Assembly (NCBI GenBank): GCA_003056085.1
Contig: LSNK01000001.1
Span: 88,729-152,728, forward strand
Direction: 5' to 3'
From: Parcubacteria group bacterium M6-OD1-1
GTDB lineage: Bacteria > Patescibacteriota > Minisyncoccia > GWC2-36-17 > M10-OD1-4
Length of the DNA: 64,000 nucleotides
This document shows, piece by piece, positions 2,856 to 61,283 of the stretch; the stretch's first letter is position 1, and each line of letters starts with the position of its first letter. The position numbers were made by a program, and so were the translations under genes. A model generated the notes under the pieces. That model saw only the letters and a list, made by a program, of their open reading frames with translations, did no database searches and was not told the DNA's origin.

Positions 2856-3926
2856 TTATGTCCTTGCGCATACAGCATAAACTGTCATGCTTCCTGAATT
2901 CCAATTTGCAGCTGCCGTCCAACCATTTGCACCAAGATTAGGTCTGTTGAATTTCATCCATACATAATTAACATCACCTCCTGCAACCATATTATAACCT
3001 CCAGATATAACTTTATATCCTGATGGACAAACAGCTGTCGCTCCATTGCCGGTAGCTGTAACAACCATCACATTAATCCCAACTGGAGTATCGGAGGTGC
3101 AAACAACTCTTCCGCTTGATGCCCTACACCACTGACCTTCTGTTAAATCTCCAACTAAACCTGTTGGAGCGCTTGCTGTGCAATTTATTTCTGTCCCATT
3201 TGAAGTGCACCACATATTATTTTGGAGAGTTCCGACTTCCGGATCATTCTCCGTTAAAACAGGAGGCGTTGCCTGACAATTTATAGTTGTTCCATTTGAA
3301 GTACACCATCTTCCTCCCTGAAGAGACCCCACAGCCGGATCTACCTCTGAAGGAGGGTCTGTTGTACAATTAACTACTGCTCCGTTTGAAGTGCACCACA
3401 TATTATTTTGAAGAGTTCCGACTTGAGGGTCCTGCTCCTGAGTTAAAAGCTGCTGTCCTTGCGAAAATATTCTTCCATTTGCTCTTATATCTCCATCTAC
3501 GTGAAGTTTCGCCTGAGGAATTATATCTCCAATTGAAATATCCCCGCTGTTTGCTATTTGAAATCTTGTTTGTTCTTGAGGATTTGATGGATTATTTGAA
3601 GTCTGAACATTATATTTTAAAGAATTTCCATCATTAAAAAAATATCCGTACCTTGGACTTGTTTGAGAATTTGAAAAAAATCTTATTCCTGACCTTGAGC
3701 CTTGCGAAACCCCATTATTTAACCAAATATCTCTCCCGATAGTTAATCCTCCTGTTTTTGTTTGGTTTGAATTTGATACATTTATCGGAGCAGGGAGATT
3801 ACTGATTGCCGGAGCCCCGGGAGGACCTATCCATTGAGCTTTTGTTTTTTGGATTATCATTGAACCTAAAAAAGAGAAGAAAACTACCGCTAAAACCATA
3901 GATATTATTTTAAATGGGATTTTCAT
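2856..3926 (-). CDS. Secreted Cys-containing repeat protein; paralog of 27906..29267 (shared N-terminal module)
   Basis: Signal peptide then AQWIGPPGAPAISNLPAPINV...GGLTIG, and a TLQNNMWCTSNG repeat present three times. The N-terminal 80 aa are alignable with the 27906 protein. Confidence 0.5.
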   Translation of the reverse strand: MKIPFKIISMVLAVVFFSFLGSMIIQKTKAQWIGPPGAPAISNLPAPINVSNSNQTKTGGLTIGRDIWLNNGVSQGSRSGIRFFSNSQTSPRYGYFFNDGNSLKYNVQTSNNPSNPQEQTRFQIANSGDISIGDIIPQAKLHVDGDIRANGRIFSQGQQLLTQEQDPQVGTLQNNMWCTSNGAVVNCTTDPPSEVDPAVGSLQGGRWCTSNGTTINCQATPPVLTENDPEVGTLQNNMWCTSNGTEINCTASAPTGLVGDLTEGQWCRASSGRVVCTSDTPVGINVMVVTATGNGATAVCPSGYKVISGGYNMVAGGDVNYVWMKFNRPNLGANGWTAAANWNSGSMTVYAVCART

Positions 3927-10452: not shown

Positions 10453-10878
10453 TTATTCTACGGTAATACCCATTGATCTTGCTGTCCCTTCAACAATACG
10501 AGAAGCCTGATCTACATCGTAAGCATTTAAATCAACCATTTTCTTTTCTGCTATCTCTTTTACCTGATCTTTTGTAACTTTCCCAATCTTTTTTTTATGA
10601 GGTTCACCTGACCCCTTTTCTACACCAGCCGCTTTTTTAAGCAGTTCTGCTGTAGGAGATGTTTTTAATTTAAATTCAAATGTTCTGTCTTCAAAAATTG
10701 TAATCTCAACAGGGACAACCTCTCCCATTTTGTCTTTTGTAGCTTCGTTATACTGTAAACAAAACTGCTGAATATTAAGTCCATGTGGACCAAGCGCTGT
10801 TCCTACGGGAGGCGCCGGATTTGCTTTCCCAGCCTGTATATTTATCTTAACTATTGTTTTTATTGGTTTATCTGCCAT
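10453..10878 (-). CDS. rplK: 50S ribosomal protein L11
   Basis: [30 protein letters not shown] is the canonical L11 sequence. Confidence 0.95.
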
Positions 10879-11010
10879 TTTTTTAGCTTATTAGCTTATT
10901 AGCTTATTTCAACCGGAGGCTGATCCGTCTTTGACGGAAGCTTTTTAGCTTAAAGTTACCTTAATTTATTAAACATTTTTATAAAAAATACATACTTTAT
11001 AAATAAAACT

Positions 11011-11085
11011 TTCAGATTTGAGCGCAGTTCGAGGAAAAATTTGAAAAATGAAGTGAATTGTAGTAAAGCTACAGCGAATAAATTT
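11011..11085. repeat. REP-like intergenic element copy 1 (between nusG and rplK)
   Basis: Module tttgagcgcagttcgagg...aaatgaagtg...tgtagtaaagctacag (hairpin)...cgaataaatt. Shares all modules with the copies at 12.06-12.29 kb, 13.0 kb, 22.3 kb and 56.7 kb. Confidence 0.45.
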
Positions 11086-11124
11086 TTCAGATTTTGACGA
11101 AAAAATGCACCAAATCTGGAAGTT

Positions 11125-11670
11125 TTATATTTTTTTGATTTGAAGGAAGTCCAATTCAACCGGAGTTTCTCTTCCAAACATAGAAACCAAAACTTTTATC
11201 TTTCCTTTCTCTTCGTCTATCTCAGATACTTTACCATCAAAATCCTTAAAAGGTCCGTCTACTATTTTTACCGCATCTGAAGCCGCAAGGTCTATCTTGT
11301 ATTTTGGCTCTTCCACACCCATTCTCTTTTGAAGTTCTTTTATTTCTGAATCTGATAATGGAATTGGAGTTGTACCGGAACCGACAAAACCCGTAACTCT
11401 TGGTGTATTTCTAACCACATACCAAGAAGCATCAGTAACTATCATCTCAACTAAAACATACCCGGGATAAATTCTTTCTTCCACTATATGTCTTTTTCCG
11501 CTCTTCATTTTTATTTTCTTCTCTTTTGGGACAAGAACATTAAAAATCTTATCCTCCATATCCATAGATTCAATTCTCTGTTTTAAGTTCCTTACAACAG
11601 CATCTTCATACCCCGAATAAGTGTGAATAGCATACCATTTTTTGCCTTGTTCTATTGTTTGTTTCGCCAT
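11125..11670 (-). CDS. nusG: Transcription termination/antitermination factor NusG
   Basis: KKWYAIHTYSGYEDAVVRNL NGN domain plus a C-terminal KOW domain. Confidence 0.9.
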   Translation of the reverse strand: MAKQTIEQGKKWYAIHTYSGYEDAVVRNLKQRIESMDMEDKIFNVLVPKEKKIKMKSGKRHIVEERIYPGYVLVEMIVTDASWYVVRNTPRVTGFVGSGTTPIPLSDSEIKELQKRMGVEEPKYKIDLAASDAVKIVDGPFKDFDGKVSEIDEEKGKIKVLVSMFGRETPVELDFLQIKKI

Positions 11671-11705
11671 TTTTAGCTTCTTAACTAATTAGCCTACTTA
11701 ATATA

Positions 11706-11909
11706 TTATAATATAAATTTATTCAGTAAATAAGAAAAAACGAAATCAAGCCCGCCTAAAAAAATAATCATTGCCAGCGAAAAAACAACAACAGCGATAG
11801 TGTAATTAATCGTAACTGATCTTTTGGGCCATGTAACCTTTTTAAGCTCTAATTTAACTTCTTTAAAATAAGTTACTATTGCAAAAAATATTTTTGAAAA
11901 AATATTCAT
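11706..11909 (-). CDS. secE: Preprotein translocase subunit SecE
   Basis: 67 aa with VKLELKKVTWP followed by a single TM helix. Conserved secE-nusG-rplK order. Confidence 0.8.
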   Translation of the reverse strand: MNIFSKIFFAIVTYFKEVKLELKKVTWPKRSVTINYTIAVVVFSLAMIIFLGGLDFVFSYLLNKFIL

Positions 11910-12061
11910 ATAATACAGATAAATAAATTTTAAAAAATTCCTATTTAAAAAAGCCCCTGAGGCTTTTATAATCGGTATGGTATATTATTTTTAATAAATA
12001 GTCAATAAGCAGCTATTTTATCCAAGAGTGGAATGATTAATTTTAAATCACAGTACCATTT

Positions 12062-12290
12062 AAGTGAAATGCAGTCGTATTTATTAAAATAACGAATAAA
12101 TTCTGAATTTTAACAGATAACATCCGCAACAAAACGCCAACCAAGCCGTAAAATACACTAAAATGAAGTTTTGTTGGATTTTCAAAATTGAGTTCAGTTC
12201 GCGGAGTAAGCAAGAAGTGAAACAAGCTGTACTTATTGGTACAGCGAGTTAGCTCCGTAGCTTACGACAAAGAAGTGAACCAATTTTGGA
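12062..12290. repeat. Two tandem copies of the REP-like intergenic element upstream of secE
   Basis: gaaatgcagtcgtatttattaaaataacgaataaatt, then aaattgagttcagttcgcggag...ctgtacttattggtacag...aattttggaaattc. Flanked by the approximate inverted repeat tttcaaaatt/aattttggaaa. Confidence 0.45.
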
Positions 12291-12297
12291 AATTCAA

Positions 12298-12921
12298 TTA
12301 AATGAATAATTCCACTATAGATATTATAGAAAACGCCAATATTGAAACAGCAACTCCTATTAAGGTAAACACTAACACTCTTGTGGCCTTTTTTGCCTGT
12401 TCAGGATCTCCTTTAGATGTCATATATAAAGCCCCTGAATAAAGCCCTGCTGTGACAGAAAGAAGAGCAATAAACCATGCCACCCAGTTTACAAGAGTGA
12501 CTAATGCATCAGTTATATTTGAAGCTGCCGATCGCACACTGCAAATACTGGATACAGCCGTAACACCTTCAGATGTAGAAGGACTTCCGGCAATCTGCAC
12601 AGTCAAAGCAACCAATGCCGGAGCCAATAATAAAACAATTATACCTATGGAAACGGCAACTATAGTCATATTTGCTTTTTTAATACTTTCTGGCTTGCCG
12701 GCTGCCGTTAAATACAAAAAACCTGCCCACAAAATAAACAAGATAGCTATCGGCGGCATTAAAACTGTAGTTAAAAAATTTGTGCCAAGACAAATAACTT
12801 CCGGTATGTTTTGAGCGGAAATAGCATTTGGAATCATTGTTTGTCCAAACACAAATGCAACCGGAGTAAATAAAAATAATGCTAACGGGAAAAATAGATT
12901 TAAAATTTTTAGTTTTCTCAT
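12298..12921 (-). CDS. Membrane protein with internally duplicated two-helix module (TrbC/VirB2-pilin-like)
   Basis: Signal peptide, then two alignable halves (ILWAGFLYLTAAGKPESIKKANMTIVAVSIGIIVLL / LLSVTAGLYSGALYMTSKGDPEQAKKATRVLVFTLIGVAVSIL), each hydrophobic-G-K/D-P-E-hydrophobic. Confidence 0.55.
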   Translation of the reverse strand: MRKLKILNLFFPLALFLFTPVAFVFGQTMIPNAISAQNIPEVICLGTNFLTTVLMPPIAILFILWAGFLYLTAAGKPESIKKANMTIVAVSIGIIVLLLAPALVALTVQIAGSPSTSEGVTAVSSICSVRSAASNITDALVTLVNWVAWFIALLSVTAGLYSGALYMTSKGDPEQAKKATRVLVFTLIGVAVSILAFSIISIVELFI

Positions 12922-13007
12922 TATTTTATTTTAACATAAAACTTAAAAAATCAAAGATAGTCACTTATATCTTACCTAAAGCAGCCCACATCTTATATTA
13001 AATGTTT

Positions 13008-13085
13008 TAATTTTGAATGCAGGTCGCAGTTAAAAAATGAAAGACAAAATGAAGTCGTGTTTATTAGTACGATGAAATGAGTTGT
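13008..13085. repeat. REP-like intergenic element copy (between the VirB2-like gene and gyrB)
   Basis: aattttgaatgcaggtcgcagttaaaaaatgaaag...gaagtcgtgtttattagtacgatgaaatgag. Confidence 0.45.
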
Positions 13086-13122
13086 GATTTTTTTAACAAA
13101 AAATGTGCTAAAAAAAGCTTTG

Positions 13123-15189
13123 CTAAATATCAAGATTTTTTACACTTTTAGCTCGAGACTGAATAAACCTTTTTCTTGAAGAAACATCCGTACCCATTAA
13201 AATATCAAACATTTTGTCAGCCTCTGCAGCGTCTTGAACAGCTACTCTTCCTAAGGATCTGTTTTTTGGATTCATCGTTGTATCCCAAAGTTGATCCGGA
13301 TTCATCTCTCCAAGACCTTTGTATCTTTGAATATTTATACCTGTTATTTTAACTTCTCCCTTTTCATCTAAATTTTCCTCTTTTTTGTCTAATGTTTTAT
13401 TTTCAGTTTTTGAGGATGTCTTTTGTTTTATAAATTTATTTATCAATTTTTCTTTTCCATCTTCTGAATATGCATATTCAACTGATCTTCCTTTTTGAAT
13501 TCTATAAAGAGGCGGCTGCGCAATATAAAGATATCCTTGTTCTATTAATTCAGGAAAATGTCTGAAAAATAATGTCAAAAGCAATGTTCTTATATGAGCG
13601 CCATCAACATCAGCATCTGTCATTATAATGATTCTGTGATATCTTGCCTTTTTTATTTCAAACTCCTCTGCGATAGCTGTTCCCAACGCTATAATAAGAG
13701 CCCTTATTTCTTTTGAAGCCAGCATTTTATCTAATCTTGCTCTCTCTATGTTTAAAATCTTTCCACGCAAAGGCAAAATAGCCTGAAATCTCCTGTCTCT
13801 TCCTTGTTTAGCTGAACCTCCGGCAGAATCTCCCTCAACAATGTAAAGCTCTGACTCCTCGGCATTTTTTGAAGAACAATCAGCAAGTTTTCCCGGTAAA
13901 GTAAGTCCTTCTAAAACCCCTTTTCTTAAAACGGTTTCTCTTGCCGCTTTTGCCGCTTTTCTTGCTTTTTGAGATAAGATGCATCTTTCAATAATTTTTT
14001 TTGCATCTTGCGGATTTTCCTCCAGAAAATAAGATAACGCGGAAGAGATAACAGCATCAGTTGCAGGCCTTGCTTCGGTTGAGCCTAATTTTGCCTTTGT
14101 CTGCCCTTCAAACTGAGGATCTCTTAATTTAACCGATAAAACAACTGTTAATCCTTCACGAACATCTTCCCCGGACAAAGAATCTCCTGAATCTTTTTTA
14201 AAAAAATTATTTTTCTTGGCGTAATCATTTAACACTCTTGTTAATGCGGTTCTGAACCCTGTTAAATGCATGCCGCCCTCCTTAGTGTTAATATTATTGG
14301 CAAAACTCATTTCTTTTCCGGTAATATCAATTATATATTGAAATGACGCCTCAACCTCAACCCCATCATGAGTTTTATCAACATAAAAAATATTATCATG
14401 CAAAGCGTCTTCATTAAAATTCAAATATCTTACCAAAGAAAGGAGTCCGCCTTCAAAATAAAAAGAATAGGAAGGTGTTTGCAAATTTAATTCATTTAAA
14501 TAAAATGCTTTTGAATCATCTATTTTACCTTCATAATTTCTTGCATCTATAATACGTATTCTTAATCCTTTAACAAGGTACGCCTGTTGCCTTAGGTGAT
14601 CCACTATCGTCTGAAAGTTAAATTCCAATTCTGAAAAAATTGAATCATCCGGAATAAAAGAAATTATTGTGCCATTTCGTTTTGACGGACCAATTTTTTT
14701 TGTCTTGCCTTGCGGTTTTCCGATTTTATATTCTTGAATATATTTCCCTCCGTCCCTATGTATCTCTGCACGAAGTGAAGTTGAAAGAGCATTAACTACA
14801 GAAACACCAACTCCATGAAGACCCCCGGAAACCTTATATGAATCCCCGCCAAACTTACCTCCTGCGTGCAAAGTCGTCATAACGGTCTCAAGAGCCGAAA
14901 CTTTTGTTTTTTTATGAATCTCAACAGGAATACCTCGTCCATTATCCACTACCCTTACAACATTATTTGGAAGCAAAGCAACTTCAACTTCATCGGCATA
15001 TCCTCCCATAGCCTCATCTCTTGAATTATCAAAAACCTCCCATATTAAATGATGCAAACCATCAACTCCCGTAGAGCCGATATACATTCCCGGTCTTTTG
15101 CGTACGGGCTCAAGCCCCTCTAAAACATAAATGTCCTCAGCAGAATACTTAGGACCCTTCTTTTTTTGGTTTTCTTTTTCTTTTGTCAT
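13123..15189 (-). CDS. gyrB: DNA gyrase subunit B (or a ParE-type topoisomerase ATPase subunit)
   Basis: GHKL ATPase N-terminus (LEGLEPVRKRPGMYIGST), a TOPRIM domain (EGDSAGGSAKQGRDR) and a C-terminal tail, 688 aa. Confidence 0.85.
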   Translation of the reverse strand: MTKEKENQKKKGPKYSAEDIYVLEGLEPVRKRPGMYIGSTGVDGLHHLIWEVFDNSRDEAMGGYADEVEVALLPNNVVRVVDNGRGIPVEIHKKTKVSALETVMTTLHAGGKFGGDSYKVSGGLHGVGVSVVNALSTSLRAEIHRDGGKYIQEYKIGKPQGKTKKIGPSKRNGTIISFIPDDSIFSELEFNFQTIVDHLRQQAYLVKGLRIRIIDARNYEGKIDDSKAFYLNELNLQTPSYSFYFEGGLLSLVRYLNFNEDALHDNIFYVDKTHDGVEVEASFQYIIDITGKEMSFANNINTKEGGMHLTGFRTALTRVLNDYAKKNNFFKKDSGDSLSGEDVREGLTVVLSVKLRDPQFEGQTKAKLGSTEARPATDAVISSALSYFLEENPQDAKKIIERCILSQKARKAAKAARETVLRKGVLEGLTLPGKLADCSSKNAEESELYIVEGDSAGGSAKQGRDRRFQAILPLRGKILNIERARLDKMLASKEIRALIIALGTAIAEEFEIKKARYHRIIIMTDADVDGAHIRTLLLTLFFRHFPELIEQGYLYIAQPPLYRIQKGRSVEYAYSEDGKEKLINKFIKQKTSSKTENKTLDKKEENLDEKGEVKITGINIQRYKGLGEMNPDQLWDTTMNPKNRSLGRVAVQDAAEADKMFDILMGTDVSSRKRFIQSRAKSVKNLDI

Positions 15190-22285: not shown

Positions 22286-22320
22286 AATCTTTTTTAAAAA
22301 TAAAGTTTTCAAAATCAGAC

Positions 22321-22436
22321 ATAAGTTGAAATGAAAGTGAGAAATGTAGTCAGTTGTACTAAATAGTACAACGAACAAGCACCGGAATTTTCAACGAAAA
22401 GATATGTTAATTTTGGAAATTCTACAATATTGATTT
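22321..22436. repeat. REP-like intergenic element copy inside the gatC-gatA intergenic gap
   Basis: gaaatgaaagtgagaaatgtagtcagttgtactaaatagtacaac...aattttcaacg...ttaattttggaaattc. The terminal aattttggaaattc is identical to the end of the 12.2-kb copy. Confidence 0.45.
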
Positions 22437-25206: not shown

Positions 25207-25778
25207 AAATTTAATTTTCTTGGAGAAATGGTTGTTTGAAGATATATTTTATCTCCTGTACTTTGCGATGCATTTTTGGACCCCACATTCATTAATATTG
25301 TTATTTTTGGCTGTCTTGCAGGATTATTAATATCAAAATTTAGAAAAATCACATTTGTATTTTGAATAGAAGTTATAGCCTCTGCATTTGCCGTGCTTCC
25401 AAAATTTCCACCAAAATTATCATCAAATTTTATCTGCCCATTATCTAAAACAAATCTCAAAACTTGGCCAATTCTATTTTCGGAATTGCTTATAAAAGAA
25501 ATATCGGAAGAATTATTTAAAACAAAAGAACTGCCCATCCTTATTTCTCTTGAAATAATTTCCATAGCATACCTTGCGCTGTCAGAAACATTTTGAGTAG
25601 CGATAGCTTTTCTTTGTCCTGAAATAGCATTTAAAAACATATTAGTGTTTATCGCTACAACAATTGCAAAAACCGCTATGGAAACCAAGAGCTCAATTAA
25701 AGTAAAACCGCCGTCAGCTTTAAGCTGTAAGTTGTGAACTTTAGACTTTTTATCAACTTTTGATTTTAAATTTTTCAT
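25203..25778 (-). CDS. Prepilin-type minor pilin, GspJ/PilW-like
   Basis: Class III signal GGFTLIELLVSIAVFAIV plus the ARYAMEIISREIRMG motif characteristic of GspJ. Confidence 0.6.
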
Positions 25779-25813
25779 AAAAGTTTTTTGTAAACCATCA
25801 ACTAAAGATTAAC

Positions 25814-26377
25814 TTACTTCCAATTAAATAGATATCCTTTTACAGAGATATCACAATTAACACCGCAGATTACATCCGACTGAACAGTAATACTGTCTAC
25901 GCTCGTTTTTTGCAAAGTTATAGTTCTTGTAAAGTCTGTGTTTGCAACAGAGCCGGCACCAGCTGTGTTATGAACATAATAACCATCAGAAAGTTTTATG
26001 CTGTAACCGGAACTCAAAGAACTGCAATTAACATCAAAAACAGAATCATTATATTGAATACATCCAACTTTTGACTGTCCGGTGCTCAAATCATCTGTAA
26101 TCCCAAAATCCCATACATTTCCATCAATCCAATTTATATCTCTTATGTTTCTTACAAGCTCAATTCCTTCTTGAGCCAACTGGGCGGCTATCAATCTTTT
26201 TTTTACTTCAGGAGCCAATTTGGTGGAGTTAACAATAGCCCCAACAGATGCCGTAACGCCAACCGTAAGAATAGTCACCGCCACTAAAACTTCTATCAAA
26301 GTAAAACCTTTATTAGTTTTTAGATTACAGGTTTTAGGTTTTAGATTTTTATCTATTTTTGATTTTAAATTTTTCAT
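25814..26377 (-). CDS. Prepilin-type minor pilin, GspI/PilV-like
   Basis: KGFTLIEVLVAVTILTVGV then AAQLAQEGIELVRN. The probable start is the internal MKNLKSKIDK at 26377. Leader and upstream 60 nt are near-identical to those of the 25203 gene. Confidence 0.6.
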   Translation of the reverse strand: MKNLKSKIDKNLKPKTCNLKTNKGFTLIEVLVAVTILTVGVTASVGAIVNSTKLAPEVKKRLIAAQLAQEGIELVRNIRDINWIDGNVWDFGITDDLSTGQSKVGCIQYNDSVFDVNCSSLSSGYSIKLSDGYYVHNTAGAGSVANTDFTRTITLQKTSVDSITVQSDVICGVNCDISVKGYLFNWK

Positions 26378-26405
26378 AAAAGTTTTTTGTAAACTAAAAA
26401 TTAAA

Positions 26406-27905: not shown

Positions 27906-29267
27906 TCACCTATACCAAACCTCCCAATTATAATATCCAAAACTTGAAGACAAATCTCTTTCTTCAACATCCAGTCTGGATATAAGACCGCCATTCCAAT
28001 CAACCCCTTCTGTGTAAGTACAGTATCCCGTACCGCCCTGTTGTATCCACTTTCCGGGATAGGAAGGATCATTTGAAGCTCTCCCTGTATCATCGGAACA
28101 AGTTTTCATAAGAGTTCCATTTATAATTAAACTTATCCTATCATTATTTAACCCAAAACTTCCCGATCCACTACTATTAGTGCCGGAAAAACCTATATCT
28201 GGACACTGAAAAGGAAAAGAGCCTTCTAAAAATTCACTTGCCCCCGAAACAACTTCACCTCCAATACAAAAATCGTCCCATTTATTTGAAGCTTTAAATA
28301 CTATTTCAGACACTGTGCCCAAAGGCCAATTAAAAATTTTACCCTCCACTCTTTGCATAATTTCTCCAGAATCCGTTACCCATGTAATTCCGGAGCTTTG
28401 TAAAGTTATTGTCGCCGTTTGAATCCAATCACTTCCCTTGGCAAGAAGAGTCCACCCTCCTGATGATGCCGCGCTGCCAACATCATCAATTTCGCAAACA
28501 ACTGTACCATCTTGATTTACAACCCTTATGGAAGACCCCGCGGCACAAGTTCCTGAAACTCTTGTTTGTATTGAAGCATTATCAACATCAGCGCTTGTTA
28601 AACTTCCGTCAATAACTTCAATTGTCCCGACGGAGTCAGCGCCTAAAGCCGTGCCTGCATTATCAACTCCATCGGCAAAACCTGCCGGTATTCCTGTAAG
28701 TTCAGACCAATCAACACCATCTTTTACATTTGTTTGAACCGTTGGGTCGGTTTCTGCCGCTGTTCCGGTATCATCAACATTATCGGCAAAGCCTGCCGGT
28801 ATTCCTGTGAGCTCAGACCAATCAACCCCGTCTTTTACATTTGCCTGAACCGTTGGATCGGTTTCTGAAGTAAGTCCGCCTATACACCCTGTAGAATCAC
28901 AAATAGTCCCGCTTGCCGTTACATCTCCGTTGTTTCGTATTGTAAGCCTGTTTTCCAATCCGGTTTGAGTTCGTGCTTGAAATGTTAAATTGTCAGCCAA
29001 GTTGGATACTTGCCAATATTGCGTCCCTCCTTCAGAAAAAAACCTTGCGCCTCGTTCAAGCCACAAATTAGAACCTAAAGTAAGACCTCCTTCTTTCCTT
29101 TGATTTTGGGCTCCAACATTTAAAGGAGCAGGGAGATTATTTTGGGGCGGGCTTGCTGTTATTCCCACCCATTGAGCAGATGTCTCTTTTACAATGGCCG
29201 CTCCCAAAAAGCTTAAAAAAACTAAGGCTACTGCCGTAAAAAATATATTTAAAAACTTTTTACCCAT
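27906..29267 (-). CDS. Large secreted repeat protein embedded in the pilus locus (candidate pilus-associated adhesin)
   Basis: Signal peptide, AQWVGITASPPQNNLPAPLNV...GGLTLG N-module shared with the 2856 protein. The ETDPTVQ.NVKDGVDWSELTGIPAGFADxVD repeat occurs twice (tail-fibre-like), then a Cys-containing C-terminal domain. Confidence 0.6.
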   Translation of the reverse strand: MGKKFLNIFFTAVALVFLSFLGAAIVKETSAQWVGITASPPQNNLPAPLNVGAQNQRKEGGLTLGSNLWLERGARFFSEGGTQYWQVSNLADNLTFQARTQTGLENRLTIRNNGDVTASGTICDSTGCIGGLTSETDPTVQANVKDGVDWSELTGIPAGFADNVDDTGTAAETDPTVQTNVKDGVDWSELTGIPAGFADGVDNAGTALGADSVGTIEVIDGSLTSADVDNASIQTRVSGTCAAGSSIRVVNQDGTVVCEIDDVGSAASSGGWTLLAKGSDWIQTATITLQSSGITWVTDSGEIMQRVEGKIFNWPLGTVSEIVFKASNKWDDFCIGGEVVSGASEFLEGSFPFQCPDIGFSGTNSSGSGSFGLNNDRISLIINGTLMKTCSDDTGRASNDPSYPGKWIQQGGTGYCTYTEGVDWNGGLISRLDVEERDLSSSFGYYNWEVWYR

Positions 29268-41736: not shown

Positions 41737-42415
41737 AAACCGGCAACCCAAAATAAAACTCCTTGCTTTAAAAACAAGGAGTTTTATTTTAGACATATTT
41801 TTCCCTTCTTTTTGTGTTACTTGCAAGAAAGAAGGAGTTTTTTTGTGCAAAGACTGCAAAAAGAGAATAGATATATTTAAAACTCCATCTCACTTCCCCA
41901 AAAAATCAAAATTGGAAATTTTTTACTGCGCAACAAAATACAAACAAGACGAAATAGAAAAATTAATTTACAGCTTTAAATATCAATTTATAAAAGAAAT
42001 TAAAAATGAACTTTGTGAAATTTTAATGGAACATCTTAAAATATCCGGGTTCAAAAAAAACAGCAGCCAAGTTTTAATACCTGTGCCTCTCCACAAAAAA
42101 CGACTAAGATGGCGAGGCTTTAACCAGTCTGAAATTTTAGCAAAAGAAATTTCAGATCATTTTGATATACCAATGATAACAAATGTGCTTTTCAGAAAAA
42201 AATACACAGAACCGCAGACTTTAAAACAAGACAGAAAAGAGAGAATTAAAAATGTTAAAAATGCTTTTTTGTGTAAAAATATTGAAATTATAAAAGACAA
42301 AGAAATAATTTTAATTGATGATGTTTTAACAACAGGCGCCACTTTAAAAGAGTGTGCTAAAATCCTCTCAAAAAATAATATAAAAAAAATAATCGCCATA
42401 ACAATAGCAAAATGA
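41726..42415 (+). CDS. comF: ComF-family protein (phosphoribosyltransferase domain, N-terminal Zn finger)
   Basis: CVTCKKEGVFLCKDCKK Zn ribbon then PRTase motif ILIDDVLTTGATL. The true start probably lies downstream of the annotated overlap with clpC. Confidence 0.75.
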   Translation: MRTKNRQPKIKLLALKTRSFILDIFFPSFCVTCKKEGVFLCKDCKKRIDIFKTPSHFPKKSKLEIFYCATKYKQDEIEKLIYSFKYQFIKEIKNELCEILMEHLKISGFKKNSSQVLIPVPLHKKRLRWRGFNQSEILAKEISDHFDIPMITNVLFRKKYTEPQTLKQDRKERIKNVKNAFLCKNIEIIKDKEIILIDDVLTTGATLKECAKILSKNNIKKIIAITIAK

Positions 42416-42453
42416 CAACTTTGGGGACGACCGTCCCCAAAGTTGTCATTTTG
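42413..42453 (+). terminator. Rho-independent terminator after comF
   Basis: tgacaactttggggacg/accgtccccaaagttgtca then ttttg. Confidence 0.7.
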
Positions 42454-42620: not shown

Positions 42621-42678
42621 AATTTGGTGATAAATTGCAATCCCGAAATAGAATTTGTTTGCAATTTGATATTAGAGC

Positions 42679-42800
42679 GGAGAGGTGGCTGAGCGGTTGC
42701 TCCCTGTTTGTCCAAGAGCAGTAGCGATTGGCTAACAAACAGCAGTACAGCGAGGCGAAGCCGAGTCGTAAAGGCGATAGTCTTGCTCCCGATTTGTTCA
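42679..42800 (+). pseudogene. Disrupted tRNA-Ser-like copy carrying a 58-nt hairpin insertion in the D-loop
   Basis: GGAGAGGTGGCTGAGCGGT, then the insert 42698..42755 (tgctccctgtttgtccaagagcagtagcgattggctaacaaacagcagtacagcgagg), then CGAAG-ccgagtcgtaa-AGGCGATAGTCTTG-ctcccgatttgttcaaatc. No anticodon or T arm. Confidence 0.5.
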
Positions 42801-42823
42801 AATCATTAATAATTTATAAAGCG

Positions 42824-42909
42824 GAGAGGTGGCTGAGCGGTCGAAGGCGATAGTCTTGAAAACTATTGTACGTTCACGCGTACCGAGGGTTCGAATCCCT
42901 CCCTCTCCG
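42824..42909 (+). tRNA. tRNA-Ser (TGA), type II with long variable arm
   Basis: GGAGAGGTGGCTGAGCGGTCGAAGGCGATAGTCTTGAAAACTATTGTACGTTCACGCGTACCGAGGGTTCGAATCCCTCCCTCTCCG, anticodon loop CTTGAAA. Confidence 0.85.
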
Positions 42910-42956
42910 CTTTGTACGATATTATGATTTGATTACAAATCGCAGTGCTGTGCAAA

Positions 42957-43010
42957 AACTATTGTACGTTCACGCGTACCGAGGGTTCGAATCCCTCCCT
43001 CTCCGCTCTG
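42957..43010 (+). pseudogene. Direct repeat of the 3' half of tRNA-Ser(TGA) (anticodon-loop to 3' end), att-site-like
   Basis: aaaactattgtacgttcacgcgtaccgagggttcgaatccctccctctccgct is identical to 42856..42909. It generates the artefactual ORF 42866..43090. Confidence 0.6.
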
Positions 43011-43153: not shown

Positions 43154-43203
43154 CAAGAAAATCAAAATTATAAAATAAATTAGTTTACAATTTAATCTTA
43201 TAT

Positions 43204-43330
43204 GAAGAGGTGACTGAGTGGCTGCTCCCTGTTTGTCCAAGAGCAGTAGCGATTGGCTAACAAACAGCAGTACAGCGAGGGCTCCCATTTTATTCACGCT
43301 TGCGTGAGTACAAAATGCAGTGCTTTAGCC
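43204..43330 (+). pseudogene. Disrupted duplicate of tRNA-Ser(GCT) 5' part carrying the same 58-nt insertion
   Basis: GAAGAGGTGACTGAGTGG, then the insert 43223..43280 (identical to 42698..42755), then unrelated sequence. The upstream 25 nt (tagtttacaatttaatcttatatg) are duplicated from the intact gene's promoter region. Confidence 0.5.
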
Positions 43331-43399
43331 TTTAGCCCGAGTCGTAAAAGTGACATATATACTTTATAATAAAAGATAGTTTACAATTTAATCTTATAT

Positions 43400-43488
43400 G
43401 GAGAGGTGACTGAGTGGCTGAAAGTGACACCCTGCTAAGGTGTTGTACGGGTTAAACCGTACCGAGGGTTCGAATCCCTCCCTCTCCG
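43400..43488 (+). tRNA. tRNA-Ser (GCT), type II
   Basis: GGAGAGGTGACTGAGTGGCTGAAAGTGACACCCTGCTAAGGTGTTGTACGGGTTAAACCGTACCGAGGGTTCGAATCCCTCCCTCTCCG, anticodon loop CTGCTAA. Confidence 0.85.
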
Positions 43489-43501
43489 CAATAGTAAAAA
43501 G

Positions 43502-45916: not shown

Positions 45917-47887
45917 TTATTTATAATAATCTACCCATCCACCTAATAATGTATATCCAGTTCCAACATGAAGTATTAAATAATTACTAGCGGTTGATTT
46001 TACGACTCTAGCTCTATAAATATCGCTGTAAGAAACATCAGTAATGACTTCTTCTTCAGAATTAGCAATATTTAATACTTGTATAGCACTATTTATGATA
46101 CCTCCATTGGCGCCAATATTAAGAAAATTATATCCGTTAACCCAAGTAGAAGATATATACATCCGATAAACTGCACCATACCTACCACCTTGTTGGTCAG
46201 GACTGTAATATGCAATACCATCTGCAGGAACTACATAAGCACCATCCGAAACCCTCTTTAGTCTTCCAGCAAAGCCACCAGAGCTTATGCCATTTCCGTC
46301 AATTCTTGCTATCACAGCATTGTTTGCATAAATATCAAAAATTCCATCTGAAACCCAATTAAAGCCAGTATCACTATCTCCTATCGCTAAGTCAATAGAA
46401 GGAGAAGCGCTAGTCCCAATACCAACATTTCCAATTGAGGTTATTCTTACTCGCTCAACATTATTCGTATAAAATTCAATTTGTCCGTCAGCCGTACTAA
46501 ACATACCTCCGTCTGTATCACCTGGGGAAGTAAAAGAGTATCCACCACCGTTGGAAGGGGTAGCTCCTTTGGCTCTTATTTGCCCGTTTACTTCTAGCTT
46601 TACATTTGGGGCGCTGTTTCCAATGCCGACATTACCAGTGTCTAAAATAGTAAATATATTAGTGCGAGTATAAGATCCGTCATCAGCATTTACTCTTAAC
46701 CCTACATCTGTTTTTTGCCATTCAGCCCAAGTGGATGTTGCAGAATTTTCTTTTAAATAAATTGCGGCCGCTAAACTGCCAGTAACCATAATTTTGGTAT
46801 CACCACCACTTACTTCTAAAAGCTGAGCAGGAGCGTTAGTCCCAATACCAACTTTTGCATTTAAAATATTTACTTCATCAGTTGTTTGGTCGTCAAATTC
46901 AATTCTTCCGGCAGCTGCGCCCAAACCGAGCCAATCACCTGTTGCTGTTGAATCAGCAAAAGCTGCGCCTGTTGTCATAGACCCTACTTTGGTAATATCT
47001 CCAGATCCTACGCTCGTCCATGCAGGATTGGCACCTGCCCCAAGAGTTTTTAGAAGTTGTCCTGATGTTCCCGGAGATAGATTTACCCAATTAGTTCCAT
47101 TAAAATATATAATGTCTCCTTGACTGGCTGTAATACCAGCAATGTCTGTAAGGTAGGCGTTACCGGCTTGCTTAGCATTCCAAGTAGAGGCCGAAGAAAT
47201 ATATGAATCGCCAATAGCGGTGCCATTCCATACGCCCGTTGCAATTGTACCTAATGTGGTAATATTTGATGTTCCCGCCCAAATTGATAAGGCAGTATTT
47301 TCTACATTGCCAAGACTAAGATTAGTTCTAGCCGCTGCGTAGTTAGCAGAACCAAGCAATGTCTGGATATTTGCGGAAGGCGTAATTCCAGCGTAAGTAG
47401 TTAAGTCAGCGTCATATGCTTGAACATTTGTTCCAATAACCAAACCCAAGTTAGTTCTGGCGGTAGAAGTACTGGCTAAATCTGAAAGATTGTTAGTTGA
47501 AAGAAGATCTCCTCCTCCACTACTAATAGTGCCCCACGCAGGATTAACGCCTGCTCCAAGAGTTTTTAGAAATTGCCCTGACGTCCCTGGAGCTATATTT
47601 ACCCAATTAGTTCCATTAAAATATATAATATCTCCTTGACTGGCTGTAATGCTTGAAATATCTGTGAGATAATCATTTCCATTCTGTGGAGTATTTACTG
47701 TACAGTTAGTGTCTCCTGGAGCGCAAGTTGGAGATAGAGTCTCTCCAAGATTATATGACGATCCTGGTGGAGCAGCCAAGGCAGTGTAAATAAAGGTTGA
47801 GAAAGCAATGATAAAAACACCAAGCAAAAACTTACTGCTTGTTTGCAGGACATTTATAACAGTGAGTAATTTGTGTAAATTTCTCAT
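45917..47887 (-). CDS. Large secreted tail-fibre-like repeat protein
   Basis: Signal/TM N-terminus. A 57-aa unit YLTDI(S/A)(S/G)ITASQGDIIYFNGTNWVN(I/L)(A/S)PGTSGQ(F/L)LKTLGAG(V/A)NPAW is duplicated. Ser/Gly/Thr-rich beta-type sequence, 656 aa. Confidence 0.6.
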   Translation of the reverse strand: MRNLHKLLTVINVLQTSSKFLLGVFIIAFSTFIYTALAAPPGSSYNLGETLSPTCAPGDTNCTVNTPQNGNDYLTDISSITASQGDIIYFNGTNWVNIAPGTSGQFLKTLGAGVNPAWGTISSGGGDLLSTNNLSDLASTSTARTNLGLVIGTNVQAYDADLTTYAGITPSANIQTLLGSANYAAARTNLSLGNVENTALSIWAGTSNITTLGTIATGVWNGTAIGDSYISSASTWNAKQAGNAYLTDIAGITASQGDIIYFNGTNWVNLSPGTSGQLLKTLGAGANPAWTSVGSGDITKVGSMTTGAAFADSTATGDWLGLGAAAGRIEFDDQTTDEVNILNAKVGIGTNAPAQLLEVSGGDTKIMVTGSLAAAIYLKENSATSTWAEWQKTDVGLRVNADDGSYTRTNIFTILDTGNVGIGNSAPNVKLEVNGQIRAKGATPSNGGGYSFTSPGDTDGGMFSTADGQIEFYTNNVERVRITSIGNVGIGTSASPSIDLAIGDSDTGFNWVSDGIFDIYANNAVIARIDGNGISSGGFAGRLKRVSDGAYVVPADGIAYYSPDQQGGRYGAVYRMYISSTWVNGYNFLNIGANGGIINSAIQVLNIANSEEEVITDVSYSDIYRARVVKSTASNYLILHVGTGYTLLGGWVDYYK

Positions 47888-54524: not shown

Positions 54525-56648
54525 ATGAAATCAATTGATATTTGCGACCCGATAGAAAACCTAAGGGGTGTAAACTCAAAAATAACAAAGCAGTTGGAGC
54601 ATCTTGGTATAGAAACTGTCCGGGACTTGCTTTTGTATTTTCCAAGACGCTACGACGACTTTTCTGTCACTACCAAAATAAAAGACATTACGATAGGAGA
54701 AAAATATACTATATCAGGCACTGTGCTTTCTATTGAAAACAACAGAGCTTTCAGGTCCAGAATGGCGATAACAAGCGCGCAAATAAGCGACGGAGACAGA
54801 ACCATAAAAGCTATCTGGTACAATCAGCCGTTTTTAATAAGAAACATACACAAAGATCAAAAAATAAACATTTCCGGAAAAGTCGGATACCAGCAAAAAA
54901 GTTTAATTATGCAAAATCCGGCTTATGAAGTTTTGAATTTAAACTCAGAAACCACACATACGGGAAGACTCGTCCCGATATATAAAGAAACGCGAGGACT
55001 AACATCAAGATGGCTAAGATCTCTTGTTAAAAATGCGCTTACTTGTTCCGACCAAATAGAGGACATTTTGCCCGAAGACATAAAAAAGAAAAGAAGCTTA
55101 ATAAGCACTCAAAGCTCCGTAAAACAAATCCATTTTCCTAAAAACAGAAAGGAGCAGCAAGAAGCAAAAAGAAGGATATCTTTTGACGAACTTTTTTTGA
55201 TACAGCTTGTAATATTAAATTCCAAAAAACAACTTGAATCTGTCGGCGCACCGAAAATAATTCCCGACATCAAACTTACAAAAACAATATTAAGCTCTCT
55301 TCCTTTTAAACTTACGGACGCGCAAAAAAAAGCCTTGTGGCAGGTATTGAAGGATATGGAAAAAGGAGTTCCGATGAACAGACTCGTTGAGGGGGACGTT
55401 GGTTCAGGAAAAACTTTAGTTGCGCTTTTGTCTGCCGCAAGTACGGCAAAAAGCGGTTGGCAAACAGCTTTTATGGCGCCAACGGAAATTTTAGCTTCCC
55501 AGCATTTTACAGAAACTATAAAAGTCTTAACTGACGCCAACTTAAACATTGCGCTTTTAACAGCATCGGAAAGCACAGCGTACGAACCTGAACTTAAAGA
55601 AATATATTCTCCTAAAAAAAACGATCTTATTAAGATGATAAATAACGGGAAAATAGATATAGTCTTGGGAACGCATTCTCTAATACAGGATAAAGTAAAA
55701 TTTAAAAAACTCGGACTGGTGATATTGGACGAACAACACAGGTTTGGAGTTAAACAGCGCGCCACACTGCTCAAAGACCAAGATTTCACTCCTCATCTTT
55801 TAAGTATGACCGCAACTCCCATACCAAGGACACTTGCAATGACAGCATACGGCGACTTGGATATTTCTTTAATAGATCAAATGCCAAAAAATAGAAAAAA
55901 AGTGATTACAAAAACGGCTTCGGGGAAAGAAAGAAAAAAAGAATACGACTTCATAGAAAAAGAAGTTAAAAAAGGACGACAGGTTTTTGTTATTTGTCCG
56001 AAAATAGAAAATAAAAATCAAGATGACGTAGAGCTCACGGAAAGACAACTTAAATCTCTTAAAATAAAAGCGGTAAAAGAAGAATATGAAAAACTTTCTG
56101 AAAAAATATTCCCTCACCTTAAAGTTGCTATGCTTCACGGGAAAATGAAACCGAAAGAAAAAGACCAGATAATGAAAGATTTCAAAGATAAAAAATATGA
56201 TATATTAGTTTCAACATCAGTAATTGAGGTTGGGGTGGATGTTCAAAATGCAACTATTATGATGATAGAGGGTGCCGATAGGTTTGGGCTTTCTCAACTT
56301 CATCAATTTCGCGGCAGAGTTGGCAGAGGAGAACACCAGTCTTACTGCTTTTTATTTTCCGATTCAGAATCGGAAAATTCAAGAATAAGACTTAAAATAA
56401 TGGAAACATGTTCTGACGGATTTAAGCTGGCGGAATACGACTTAAAAATGCGAGGACCGGGAGATTTTTTAGGAAAAAATCAATCCGGTATTCCGGATGT
56501 TGCAATGGAAGCATTGATAAATCCATTTTTAATTTCAGAAGCGCAAGAAGAAGCAAAAAAAATAATAGAAAAAGACCCAACTCTCAAAAAACATCCAAAA
56601 ATTTTAAAAAGAATATCCAAAATGACGGAAGAAATACATTTTGAATAA
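54525..56648 (+). CDS. recG: ATP-dependent DNA helicase RecG
   Basis: Wedge/OB N-domain, helicase motifs GDVGSGKT...DEQHRFGV...VSTSVIEVGVDV...QFRGRVGRG, 707 aa. Confidence 0.9.
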   Translation: MKSIDICDPIENLRGVNSKITKQLEHLGIETVRDLLLYFPRRYDDFSVTTKIKDITIGEKYTISGTVLSIENNRAFRSRMAITSAQISDGDRTIKAIWYNQPFLIRNIHKDQKINISGKVGYQQKSLIMQNPAYEVLNLNSETTHTGRLVPIYKETRGLTSRWLRSLVKNALTCSDQIEDILPEDIKKKRSLISTQSSVKQIHFPKNRKEQQEAKRRISFDELFLIQLVILNSKKQLESVGAPKIIPDIKLTKTILSSLPFKLTDAQKKALWQVLKDMEKGVPMNRLVEGDVGSGKTLVALLSAASTAKSGWQTAFMAPTEILASQHFTETIKVLTDANLNIALLTASESTAYEPELKEIYSPKKNDLIKMINNGKIDIVLGTHSLIQDKVKFKKLGLVILDEQHRFGVKQRATLLKDQDFTPHLLSMTATPIPRTLAMTAYGDLDISLIDQMPKNRKKVITKTASGKERKKEYDFIEKEVKKGRQVFVICPKIENKNQDDVELTERQLKSLKIKAVKEEYEKLSEKIFPHLKVAMLHGKMKPKEKDQIMKDFKDKKYDILVSTSVIEVGVDVQNATIMMIEGADRFGLSQLHQFRGRVGRGEHQSYCFLFSDSESENSRIRLKIMETCSDGFKLAEYDLKMRGPGDFLGKNQSGIPDVAMEALINPFLISEAQEEAKKIIEKDPTLKKHPKILKRISKMTEEIHFE

Positions 56649-56675
56649 AAAATATAACACTTAAAAATCAAAAAA

Positions 56676-56716
56676 TAACAACCTTTTTGACGACCGTCAA
56701 AAAGGTTGTTATTTTT
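56676..56716. terminator. Bidirectional terminator between recG and the GT2 gene
   Basis: aacaacctttttgacg/accgtcaaaaaggttgtt then attttttt. Confidence 0.65.
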
Positions 56717-56744
56717 TATAAATTCCATTTGAGATACCAAACTT

Positions 56745-56790
56745 CAAAAATTGAGTGCAGGTTGCAGCTAAAATTTTGAAGTTTTATCTC
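56745..56790. repeat. REP-like element copy (hairpin form)
   Basis: cttcaaaaattgagtgcaggttgcagctaaaattttgaagtttt. The ttgagtgcaggttgcag core lies in the loop of a ttcaaaatt/aattttgaa stem. Confidence 0.45.
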
Positions 56791-59153: not shown

Positions 59154-59387
59154 AACATTGTTCCAAACAAAAAGACTCCCTTATCAACATCTGGGGAGTT
59201 TTTTCTTGTAAAAAACACTTAAAATGCTATTATTATAACAATATGAAATTAAAAACAAAAGGCATTTAAATTTTTGGATGTAATTTGCGGAAAAATCAAG
59301 GAGCAAAATGAGTCGTACTCAAAAGTACGACGAATGAGCACCTCAGATTTTAACAAAGAAGTACGTCAAAAATAAAATACCCACGAT

Positions 59388-60140
59388 ATGAAATTAAAAA
59401 CAAATCTGCACTTTCACACAGCAGACGACCCAAATCACGAAATTGAATATTCTTTTTATCAAGCGATAGACAAAACATCGGCGCTTGGTTTTTCTGTTTT
59501 GGCTCTTACCTGCCACAACTACTTTGCTTGGTCAAAAAAATATGCGGAATATGCGGAAGAAAAAGGCGTTTTGTTAATCCCCGGGATTGAGATCGGCATA
59601 GACAGAGGAAAAGTTTCAAAAGAAGGAAGACATCTTATAATTTTGGGATGCGATAAAGATGTAGAAAAAATCCAAACATTTGACGATGTAAGAAAATACA
59701 AAAAAGAACATCCTGAAATTTTTATTCTTGCTCCCCACCCATTTTTTTACGGAAGCTTCAGTTTAAAAGATGCTCTTGAAAAAAATATTGATATAATAGA
59801 TGCCATAGAACAATCCTGGTTTTACTCAAAGTGGTTTAATAAAAACAAAGAAGCAGAAAAAATGGCGAAAAAATACAACCTGCCTTATATATCAACATCA
59901 GATACTCACTTTTTTAATTTTATAGACAGACATTACGCCACAATAACAACAAAAGAACAAACGCAAGAAGCAGTTTTTGAATCAATGAGAAAAAAACAAT
60001 TTAAAAACACAACAAGTCCTCAAAACTTCTTGCTTGATTTAATGATAATACAAGGAATATTCACCATCTCAGATAACATAAAACGATTTGCCAAAAAATT
60101 CTCTAAAAAACCTGCTGCCAATCTTGATTTTTCCGAATAA
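59388..60140 (+). CDS. PHP-domain metal-dependent phosphoesterase
   Basis: N-terminus MKLKTNLHFHTADDPNHE... and internal His/Asp ligand spacing of the PHP fold, 250 aa. Confidence 0.7.
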   Translation: MKLKTNLHFHTADDPNHEIEYSFYQAIDKTSALGFSVLALTCHNYFAWSKKYAEYAEEKGVLLIPGIEIGIDRGKVSKEGRHLIILGCDKDVEKIQTFDDVRKYKKEHPEIFILAPHPFFYGSFSLKDALEKNIDIIDAIEQSWFYSKWFNKNKEAEKMAKKYNLPYISTSDTHFFNFIDRHYATITTKEQTQEAVFESMRKKQFKNTTSPQNFLLDLMIIQGIFTISDNIKRFAKKFSKKPAANLDFSE

Positions 60141-60683: not shown

Positions 60684-61283
60684 ATGGGATTTTTTAATTT
60701 TTCAAAATACAACAATGCAGAAAAAGAACTCCTAGATTTATATAGCACCGAGTTCGAAAACATAGGAATTCCAGAACCATCTAAAATGGCGGGAAATTTG
60801 TTAGATGAAGCAATCAAAGAATCTAAAAAAATTAATCTTCCCGTTAATGCTGGAGATTCACTTTTAGATAAAGAAAAAAATAATGAAAGCACCCACAATC
60901 TTTTAGAAAAAAAGAGACGGGAGGGTGTGCGTGATGAAGATATTAGATGGTGGTGGAATTCGAGCGACCTAGAACGAATGATGATGTTAAAAGTTGATGA
61001 GTTTCACCGATTAGCTTTACATATAAAATGTCGGGAAGATGGTTTGTCGGCTGAACAGTCAGCTAATCAAGTTAGAAAATTTCATCCTATTTATGGAAAC
61101 CCAGAAGAAACAACTCATACTGATGGGGATGATGGACCACTACCCGAAGAACTAAAAAATAGAATTAATATTTATATAGAAAGAAAACCACAAACAGACC
61201 CTGAAAAATATAAAGATGAAATTGAACAATCAACTACATTTAATGCTTTAATACGAAAAGAACTTAAAAAGAATAACCTTTAA
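60684..61283 (+). CDS. Hypothetical protein (island gene 1)
   Basis: 199 aa, no recognisable motif. Co-oriented with the XRE gene, 2-nt spacer. Confidence 0.5.
   Translation: MGFFNFSKYNNAEKELLDLYSTEFENIGIPEPSKMAGNLLDEAIKESKKINLPVNAGDSLLDKEKNNESTHNLLEKKRREGVRDEDIRWWWNSSDLERMMMLKVDEFHRLALHIKCREDGLSAEQSANQVRKFHPIYGNPEETTHTDGDDGPLPEELKNRINIYIERKPQTDPEKYKDEIEQSTTFNALIRKELKKNNL

Follow-up and report, generated by a model that had tools for sequence, protein, structure and literature searches.

Structured hairpin repeats, probably mobile, between core genes of a Parcubacteria bacterium

Our analysis of 64,000 nt of the genome of Parcubacteria group bacterium M6-OD1-1 (assembly GCA_003056085.1, contig LSNK01000001.1, positions 88,729 to 152,728 of the forward strand; hereafter the window) revealed a dispersed family of non-coding hairpin repeats, present as five full copies of about 121 nt and two partial ones, all seven on the + strand. 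The fold of the repeat is upheld by covariation, its copies occupy sites that are empty in related genomes and are in some cases flanked by target duplications, members occur in a second, Myxococcota-like lineage, and the family is absent from Rfam. It appears to be undescribed, and we consider it probably a non-autonomous mobile hairpin of the MITE type (miniature transposable elements with inverted repeats), resembling ERIC and Correia elements most in form. The source genome (window GC content 32 %) lies near metagenome-assembled genomes of ‘Candidatus Azambacteria’ within the Patescibacteria/Parcubacteria. The Patescibacteria, or candidate phyla radiation (CPR), have tiny, compact genomes that are thought to carry few mobile elements, and to our knowledge small mobile elements of this sort have hardly been reported in them. 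The insertions described here lie inside core loci, namely gyrB-pilin-secE-nusG-rplK, gatCA, the S10 ribosomal protein operon and the gene for RNase P RNA.

The repeat and its fold

A first-pass annotation, made from the sequence alone, had placed a REP-like structured element at six intergenic positions. A hidden Markov model (HMM), used beside a covariance model (CM), located the repeat at all six, and every sequence module described there was present in the copies; the gene context had also been read correctly (between nusG and rplK, 5′ of secE, 5′ of a type IV secretion system (T4SS)-pilin gene, and between gatC and gatA). The extents needed revision, as several were too short for units of about 121 nt. 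The count of ‘six or more’ held, with seven found, although a fifth full copy (59263-59383) had been missed, and the entries at 12062-12110 and 56745-56790 proved to be a decayed fragment and a short form of the repeat. Throughout, ‘sense’ refers to the orientation of the element on the + strand of the window, and L-numbers denote compared loci or contigs. The copies in the window are:

11007-11127, + strand: full copy 1 (nhmmer E = 2.7e-27; CM 100.4 bits)
12042-12131 (nhmmer envelope), + strand: decayed fragment that covers just the central hairpin region (nhmmer E = 0.023, model positions 40-88)
12177-12297, + strand: full copy 2, the best preserved (CM 112 bits)
13002-13122, + strand: copy 3, full-length but decaying (CM 63.5 bits)
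22304-22424, + strand: full copy 4 (CM 94.1 bits)
56742-56786, + strand: short form with the interior deleted, outer stem around GAGTGCAGGTTGCAG (nhmmer E = 0.02, model positions 4-35)
59263-59383, + strand: full copy 5 (nhmmer E = 4.6e-16; CM 110.9 bits)

An HMM made from four copies recovered those four at E = 9e-31 to 7e-20, and the CM scored 63-112 bits for the five full copies, with everything else in the window at or below about 20 bits. The decayed fragment, which stands in tandem to the left of copy 2, had no CM match at E ≤1. Across the family the repeat measures 121-155 nt and has no open reading frame (ORF) common to its copies.

Each intact copy forms one rod-like imperfect hairpin of four helices with conserved internal loops. 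At the base, an outer stem of 10-19 bp leads via a bulged purine to a 5-bp stem (GUGCA/UGCGC); towards the tip next comes a large internal loop (5′ side GUUCGAGG, 3′ side RACRAAGAAAU) crossed by UUC/GAA and one G-C pair, and the tip consists of a variable stem, a purine-rich loop and the apical hairpin CGUAC-N6-GUACG, followed by GCGAR. The conserved bases are those of the internal loops and the apical hairpin (GTTCGAGG; CGTAC-N6-GTACGRCGAR; RACRAAGAAAT). The outer stem provides terminal inverted repeats of 10-19 bp in every intact copy, perfect over 18 bp in L097. Minimum free energies of intact copies ranged from -29 to -53 kcal/mol, with z = -4.8 to -9.6 relative to shuffled sequences. Three of the four copies first folded were far more stable than shuffles (z = -6.5, -9.6 and -4.8), among them copy 1 (-39.3 kcal/mol, z = -6.5) and copy 2 (-53.2 kcal/mol, z = -9.6), whereas the decaying copy at 13002 folded no better than shuffles (z = -0.2). 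The short form is a hairpin of -13.6 kcal/mol.

Covariation was tested for a 42-pair structure on an alignment of 19 copies from the window and other organisms. Paired cells made up 81.9 %, compared to 64 % in column shuffles, and pairing fell to 35-41 % when partners were slid by 1-3 columns. Compensatory change on both sides was seen in 35 of the 42 pairs, and the covariation score of 0.497 (0.207 in shuffles) was attained by none of 500 shuffles. RNAalifold, applied independently, recovered 27 of the pairs, and compensatory changes were present in 23 of those 27. The dispersed, structured and intergenic nature of the repeat, as first annotated, is thus borne out by the HMM, the CM and covariation. 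The same annotation had named its own counter-explanation, local duplication or A/T-rich chance similarity; put as chance in A/T-rich spacers or a duplication confined to a 2-kb region, this is refuted. It could appeal to the A/T-rich spacers of a 32 % GC genome and to three copies lying within 2 kb, but E-values reach 1e-31, further copies lie 10 kb and 48 kb away in the window, the CM found others in other organisms, including contigs of 58 % GC, and the covariation exceeds all 500 shuffles and all slid registers.

The sense strand folded better than the antisense strand in all 19 copies, G-U outnumbered A-C in paired columns (48:24), and the unpaired invariant bases were nearly all purines (constant loop purines G25, G28, A46, A49, A54, A58, G80, A81, A103, A106 and A107). 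One particular strand, as RNA or single-stranded DNA, therefore matters.

Insertion sites, target duplications and members elsewhere

Copy 5 lies in sense just 5′ of the ATG (59388) of a PHP-domain phosphoesterase gene, where 126 nt of inserted DNA (59260-59385) is bounded on either side by a perfect 19-bp repeat:

59241-59259, + strand: left copy of the target duplication, ATATGAAATTAAAAACAAA (exact repeat)
59386-59404, + strand: right copy of the target duplication, ATATGAAATTAAAAACAAA (exact repeat), the real start of the PHP-domain gene

This 19-bp sequence is single in L114 and L110, and the congener L114 carries an uninterrupted ...TATATAAAATATGAAATTAAAAACAAACCTG... once at the PHP site, which is likewise empty in L110. 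The left copy holds an ATG and five codons, which now head an 8-codon mini-ORF behind the promoter. The converse case was also found, as L114 carries a copy between its GGDEF and RNase T genes at a site that is empty in the window. Between related genomes, five window sites are empty in relatives and one L114 site is filled where the window is empty.

Three further full copies lie in the minus-strand region that had been flagged for study, which comprises:

10453-10878, - strand: rplK
11125-11670, - strand: nusG
11706-11909, - strand: secE
12298-12921, - strand: T4SS-pilin (TrbC/VirB2-like) gene
13123-15189, - strand: gyrB

Copy 1 lies between nusG and rplK, antisense to the operon, with the nusG stop codon (11125-11127) inside its outer stem; the spacer measures 246 nt in the window and the empty site 20 nt in L007 and 85 nt in L008. 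Copy 2 runs right up to the T4SS-pilin gene, with 0 nt between its end and the stop codon (12298-12300), and lies upstream of the secE promoter. The spacer between this gene and secE is 388 nt in the window compared to 103 nt without insert in L008, in which the secE promoter region on the far side of the insert is conserved. The right end of copy 3 meets the gyrB stop codon (13123-13125); L008 has an empty site between gyrB and trbC, with the same gyrB C-terminus and stop position as the window. Copy 4 fills the 136-nt gatC-gatA spacer, and the gatC stop codon is now the last three bases of the copy (CTA, 22422-22424; TAG on the minus strand). In L115, L117 and L119 gatC and gatA overlap (TAATG) with no insert, and relative to these the window gatC is without its last Lys codon, so that copy 4 has separated a translationally coupled pair and given gatC a new stop codon. 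At its right end the short form takes in the stop codon (56784-56786) of a gene for a 512-aa glycosyltransferase.

Two of these sites are also occupied elsewhere. L119, from the same organism as L114, harbours one copy of 74 bits immediately behind nusG and a decayed one of 15.7 bits behind gyrB, at the positions of copies 1 and 3 in the window. These may have been inherited or may have arisen separately at a hot spot, the relatives all standing at roughly equal distances from the window. Across 1.2 Mb of nusG neighbourhoods from 80 other Patescibacteria species, no copy was found. TA flanks many of the AT-rich copies. A TA target duplication of the IS630/mariner type was considered but is doubtful, as nusG and gatC rebuilt under that model have C-termini unlike those of all relatives.

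The rest of the nusG-rplK spacer (10879-11006, minus strand, upstream of rplK) is unalignable with relatives. Within it, three tandem TAAGCTAA-like units stand directly before the rplK ATG and are preceded by a G+C-rich hairpin, CTTCCGTCAAAGACGGATCAG; a leader of the L11 operon is one possible reading.

JGI metagenomes scanned with a degenerate pattern yielded 21 contigs, and the HMM and CM confirmed members in two groups:

L092, L094, L096, L097, L099, L103: AT-rich, CPR-like contigs
L089, L091, L093, L098, L101, L104-L106, L109: contigs of 58 % GC, with nearest named proteins from Myxococcota

Elements of the GC-rich subfamily measure about 155 nt, and their ends, CCCAAATCCACCATC and GATGGTGATTCGGG, are terminal inverted repeats. 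Copies at five unrelated loci are 95-98 % identical, which indicates that the element multiplied recently in one host. Two loci have the element between perfect direct repeats of 5 bp (GATAA and GAAAT), and at a third the flanks match at four of five positions, (T/G)GGGG. Two relatives of this Myxococcota-like organism had no copy in 42.7 kb and a shorter spacer at the orthologous place, and solo ends of the subfamily were not found elsewhere in the compared loci. The same fold and loop motifs are thus shared with a Myxococcota-like organism, and the element therefore either crossed phyla or is very old.

Among the AT-rich contigs, L099 carries four copies within 10.5 kb of the S10 ribosomal protein operon. 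In L096 a copy stands 7 nt upstream of a tRNA and is backed by an older one that has decayed. L097 shows that the element can be tolerated in the gene of a structural RNA: here it occupies the terminal loop of a helix in the specificity domain of RNase P RNA, which scores 146.5 bits when the insert is skipped. That gene (2222-2928) is 707 nt long, compared to 367 nt for the model, the element lying within a 166-nt loop insert; a second insertion of about 190 nt is located in the hairpin that matches model position ~136. In L099 the rplB/rpsS spacer (2560-2885) holds two copies head to head, in opposite orientation and 78 nt apart, one abutting the rplB stop codon and the other the rpsS start codon.

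Placement, partner genes and mode of spread

In the AT-rich copies, 0-10 nt separate the right end from a gene or stable RNA edge, and 15-130 nt separate the left end from the next gene. About 12 copies stand directly 3′ of stop codons, every one antisense, and others stand in sense before a start codon or tRNA:

Antisense after a stop codon: window 11007, 12177, 13002, 22304 and 56742; L099 b, c and d; L092; L103; two in L119
Sense before a start codon or tRNA: window 59263; L099a; L114; L096

All five Myxococcota-like copies are sense, 36-155 nt 5′ of unrelated genes. Where a spacer holds two copies (12042/12177; L096), the intact one is beside the gene and the decayed one farther out. The flanking genes are core housekeeping genes (nusG, gyrB, gatC, rpsJ, rplB, secY). 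The first-pass annotation had seen neither the single orientation and the gene-bound right end nor the absence of the insertions from relatives and the members outside the Patescibacteria.

This tie between orientation and context (about 12 antisense copies after stop codons, nine sense copies in 5′ leaders, including the five Myxococcota-like ones) is what might be expected of a functional structured RNA, serving in cis for processing, stability or protein binding or else forming a family of small RNA genes, spread by duplication and kept by the host. Strong covariation with constant purine-rich loops and a sense strand that always folds better agree with such a role, as do the sense orientation of both the RNase P RNA copy and the pre-tRNA leader copy and the survival of all motifs in the copy after nusG in two species, the rest of the spacer being unalignable. 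However, we regard it as rather unlikely, given that the sites are empty in equally related genomes, that the adjoining genes are functionally unrelated, that copies are decaying (13002; L119 18680; fragment 12042; short form 56742) and that the Patescibacteria copies are mostly antisense to the only obvious transcripts. The copies also lack a common promoter or terminator signal, and the near-identical GC-rich copies with flanking duplications indicate recent transposition.

More specific RNA and coding roles were also rejected. The idea of a riboswitch or leader was dropped, since the genes that follow the copies have no relation to one another (aminotransferase IV, MFS transporter, AhpC/TSA, FAD oxidase, lipoprotein, PHP, S19). 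By eye there was no consistent U-tract past the hairpin in either orientation, as an intrinsic terminator would show, and a terminator scan flagged one site only, at copy 2; nor was an integration host factor (IHF) site recognised in the copies. A conserved small ORF was suggested by MSRTQKYDE and MKRTQGYDE, read by eye in two copies, yet the ATG and frame are not kept in the others. The loop sizes and sequences do not seem to fit a hairpin ribozyme, K-turn or T-loop.

Searches for known families were negative. With Rfam 15 at gathering score, the window and 11 loci returned tRNAs and one RNase P RNA only, and in E-value mode the matches overlapping two element regions were at chance level (E ≥2). 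Against 5,426 complete E. coli genomes, which carry ERIC, REP and BIME, blastn (word 11) gave no match. An origin from a phage or plasmid was rejected, as blastn against plasmids and phages found no similarity and two pattern scans of IMG/VR found no contig with the element. Integron attC sites, for which R″/R′ core sites (RYYYAAC ... GTTRRRY) should bound a hairpin after a gene cassette, were likewise rejected, since the ends do not fit GTTRRRY and the flanking genes are housekeeping genes rather than cassettes. Literature searches brought up nothing relevant on a described CPR repeat or on insertion into RNase P RNA.

Movement of a single-stranded DNA hairpin by a HUH/Y1 enzyme, in the manner of REPIN/RAYT or IS200/IS605 and with orientation set by replication, would account for strand-specific folding in all copies, for the conservation of hairpin and loops rather than ends, and for the same chromosomal orientation at eight independent loci of the genus. 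Transposition by such enzymes (HUH/RAYT; Y1, IS200/IS605) is not known to make a target duplication, and the perfect 19-bp and 5-bp duplications at insertions render this explanation improbable. No Y1 or RAYT gene was found among the scanned window ORFs or the called genes of the compared loci, the source genome being covered over about 70 kb, and the better-folding strand in the window would be the leading-strand template rather than the lagging one, judging by GC skew and gene bias. REPIN hairpins are about this size (PMC3116915), but the foot of the element has neither GTAG nor another fixed tetranucleotide such as features in REP sequences (PMC8266576), and there is no doublet of short REP units.

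The unequal duplications (5 and 19 bp) speak for a further alternative, a retro-mobilised RNA hairpin resembling a short interspersed nuclear element (SINE). A reverse transcriptase (RT) would in that case recognise the conserved loops in sense RNA, with the resulting cDNA attached at nicks or transcript ends. Conservation of an RNA-like fold and purine loops rather than ends is in keeping with this, the right ATATGAAATTAAAAACAAA would begin at about the expected start of a near-leaderless PHP transcript, after a conserved promoter, and a retron-type RT gene is present in the window (62559-63515). We nevertheless find it very improbable. That RT and its helix-turn-helix (HTH) partner match type VI retrons, which serve in defence, and no copy of the element adjoins them; no RT was noted in the other contigs, there is no A-tail or 3′ priming signature, and the GC-rich terminal inverted repeats with fixed 5-bp duplications better suit DNA transposition. 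The locus itself (62559-63828, minus strand) encodes a 318-aa RT (best PADLOC match RT_VI, 1.2e-29) that overlaps an upstream 107-aa HTH protein (HTH_VI, 4.7e-14) and, from these matches, looks like a type VI retron defence locus. Three small genes without assigned function (60684-62539) adjoin it.

The MITE-like interpretation that we favour does itself face several difficulties. Pfam scans of neighbouring genes and window ORFs found no transposase, integrase or HUH gene near any copy, only housekeeping genes and the one retron-type RT, and no gene-bearing partner with the same ends was found in the compared loci. Conservation is the reverse of that in a classical MITE, the AT-rich ends being weakly conserved (roughly TA-RAAnTT...AAnTTY-TA) and the interior loops most conserved, across phyla. 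A target duplication of fixed length, as is typical of MITEs, is not displayed evenly: it is 19 bp once and 5 bp in two to three of the five GC-rich copies (two perfect, one the 4/5 match), and none was detectable at the flanks of most AT-rich copies. Copies of one genome share only about 55-65 % identity with the fold still kept, which needs either selection on each copy or arm-to-arm correction. Furthermore, all 10 copies of the window's genus, at eight loci, have one chromosomal orientation, and the end that abuts a gene is the right one, never the left. Random insertion followed by selection does not obviously explain this uniformity; selection in a compact genome can account for one end touching a gene, but not obviously for its always being the right end, which may reflect orientation-dependent RNA effects or polar, replication-linked insertion. 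With its conserved loops, loose ends, variable duplications and uniform polarity, the family is a poor fit to a classical MITE.

Taken together, we propose that a non-coding hairpin element of about 120 nt (about 155 nt in the GC-rich subfamily) is inserted by an enzyme encoded elsewhere, with integration likely to be of the staggered-cut type. In compact genomes, copies would persist only at harmless spots, that is, after a stop codon, before a start codon or tRNA, or in the terminal loop of RNase P RNA. The folded single strand, as RNA or DNA, rather than the ends alone may be needed for mobilisation or retention. Once inserted in a transcribed spacer, the element might act as an RNA hairpin, and its orientation-dependent effects on transcript processing or stability might filter insertions, by analogy with ERIC and Correia elements (PMC10969869).

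A more speculative idea, which we think distinctly unlikely, is that this is no ordinary DNA MITE but a mobile hairpin whose conserved loops are the recognition site of a dedicated single-strand enzyme. Such an enzyme may be an RT copying the sense RNA, making the element a SINE-like retroposon, or a new hairpin-specific recombinase. If true, loop recognition would explain the conservation of the loops from Patescibacteria to Myxococcota, duplications of 5-19 bp, the uniform orientation and joining at the right end. Whatever the mechanism, the fixed loops, co-varying stems, loose ends and strict polarity, which classical MITEs do not show, may lead to a new mobilising enzyme or to an RNA-binding partner. 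The covariance model would improve annotation of CPR genomes, account for many long spacers and contig breaks, and flag insertions in structural RNAs.

Other repeats of the window and comparison with known systems

Several other loci of the window contain repeats of different kinds. At 42668-42790 and 43203-43345 lie two 5′ parts of tRNA-Ser genes, both broken after GGCTGAGYGGYTG by the same insert, CTCCCTGTTTGTCCAAGAGCAGTAGCGATTGGCTAACAAACAGCAGTACAGCGAGG ... CCGAGTCGTA, and each just upstream of an intact tRNA-Ser gene (42823-42910 and 43400-43489); a spare 3′ half is located at 42955-43010. The broken parts might represent gene copies that were disrupted, scars of integration or pseudo-tRNAs with introns. 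Two terminator-like palindromes (42384-42452 and 56647-56715), after a phosphoribosyltransferase gene and after recG, have the form AAAAAAT...ACAAC(C)TTT-GACGACCGTC-AAAGTTGT...TTTT with the same GACGACCGTC centre. Diverged direct repeats in coding regions (3161-3438, 25684-26405, 28648-28867 and 47018-47680), comprising three 92-nt units and pairs at 74 %, 85 % and 84 % identity, are probably repeated protein domains (pilin-like genes; a 656-aa protein without a Pfam match).

The ERIC/IRU elements, which are MITEs in the form of 127-bp imperfect palindromes, resemble the new family in size and in that the whole element is one imperfect hairpin. Both occupy intergenic spacers that are transcribed, frequently where a gene has its 3′ end, and vary in copy number among related genomes. 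The effects of ERIC on transcripts depend on context, and in Yersinia an RNase E site is unmasked (PMC10969869). ERIC hosts are Enterobacteriaceae and Vibrionaceae, whereas the hosts found here are Patescibacteria and a Myxococcota-like lineage. Unlike ERIC, to which it showed no sequence homology in the E. coli blastn search, the new element conserves its interior loops rather than its ends, is associated with 5- and 19-bp duplications instead of a short fixed one, and has strict right-end polarity.

The Correia elements of Neisseria (NEMIS/CREE) are likewise small, non-coding and mobile, with inverted-repeat ends and positions just 5′ of genes. In these, pairing is limited to the 26-bp ends, the element carries promoters as well as an IHF site, and TA is duplicated. 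The new element, in contrast, pairs over its whole length, with no promoter or IHF site recognised. Co-transcribed Correia copies form RNA hairpins that are cleaved by RNase III (PMC10969869).

With REP and REPIN sequences the family has in common an extragenic, multi-copy hairpin that presumably moves as a folded single strand, with REPIN hairpins of roughly similar length (PMC3116915). REP palindromes have a conserved GTAG (or CGTC) at their foot (PMC8266576). A RAYT gene, usually with REPs on its flanks, goes with such sequences, and none was seen among the window ORFs scanned or the compared loci. The feet of the new element read RAAnTTT... and ...AAAnTTY, and GTAC/GTAG occurs solely within the apical hairpin; there are no paired short REP units, and there are target duplications. 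The label ‘REP-like’ does not hold in its strict sense, as the unit is a single 120-nt rod rather than a 20-40-nt palindrome or REP doublet, its foot is without GTAG, and duplications of 19 bp and 5 bp exist.

Finally, the L097 copy, which extends the terminal loop of RNase P RNA as an extra hairpin, recalls the intervening sequences (IVS) of ribosomal RNA. An IVS extends helices 25 and 45 of 23S rRNA. These sequences are confined to rRNA, whereas the new element is found mostly between protein-coding genes.

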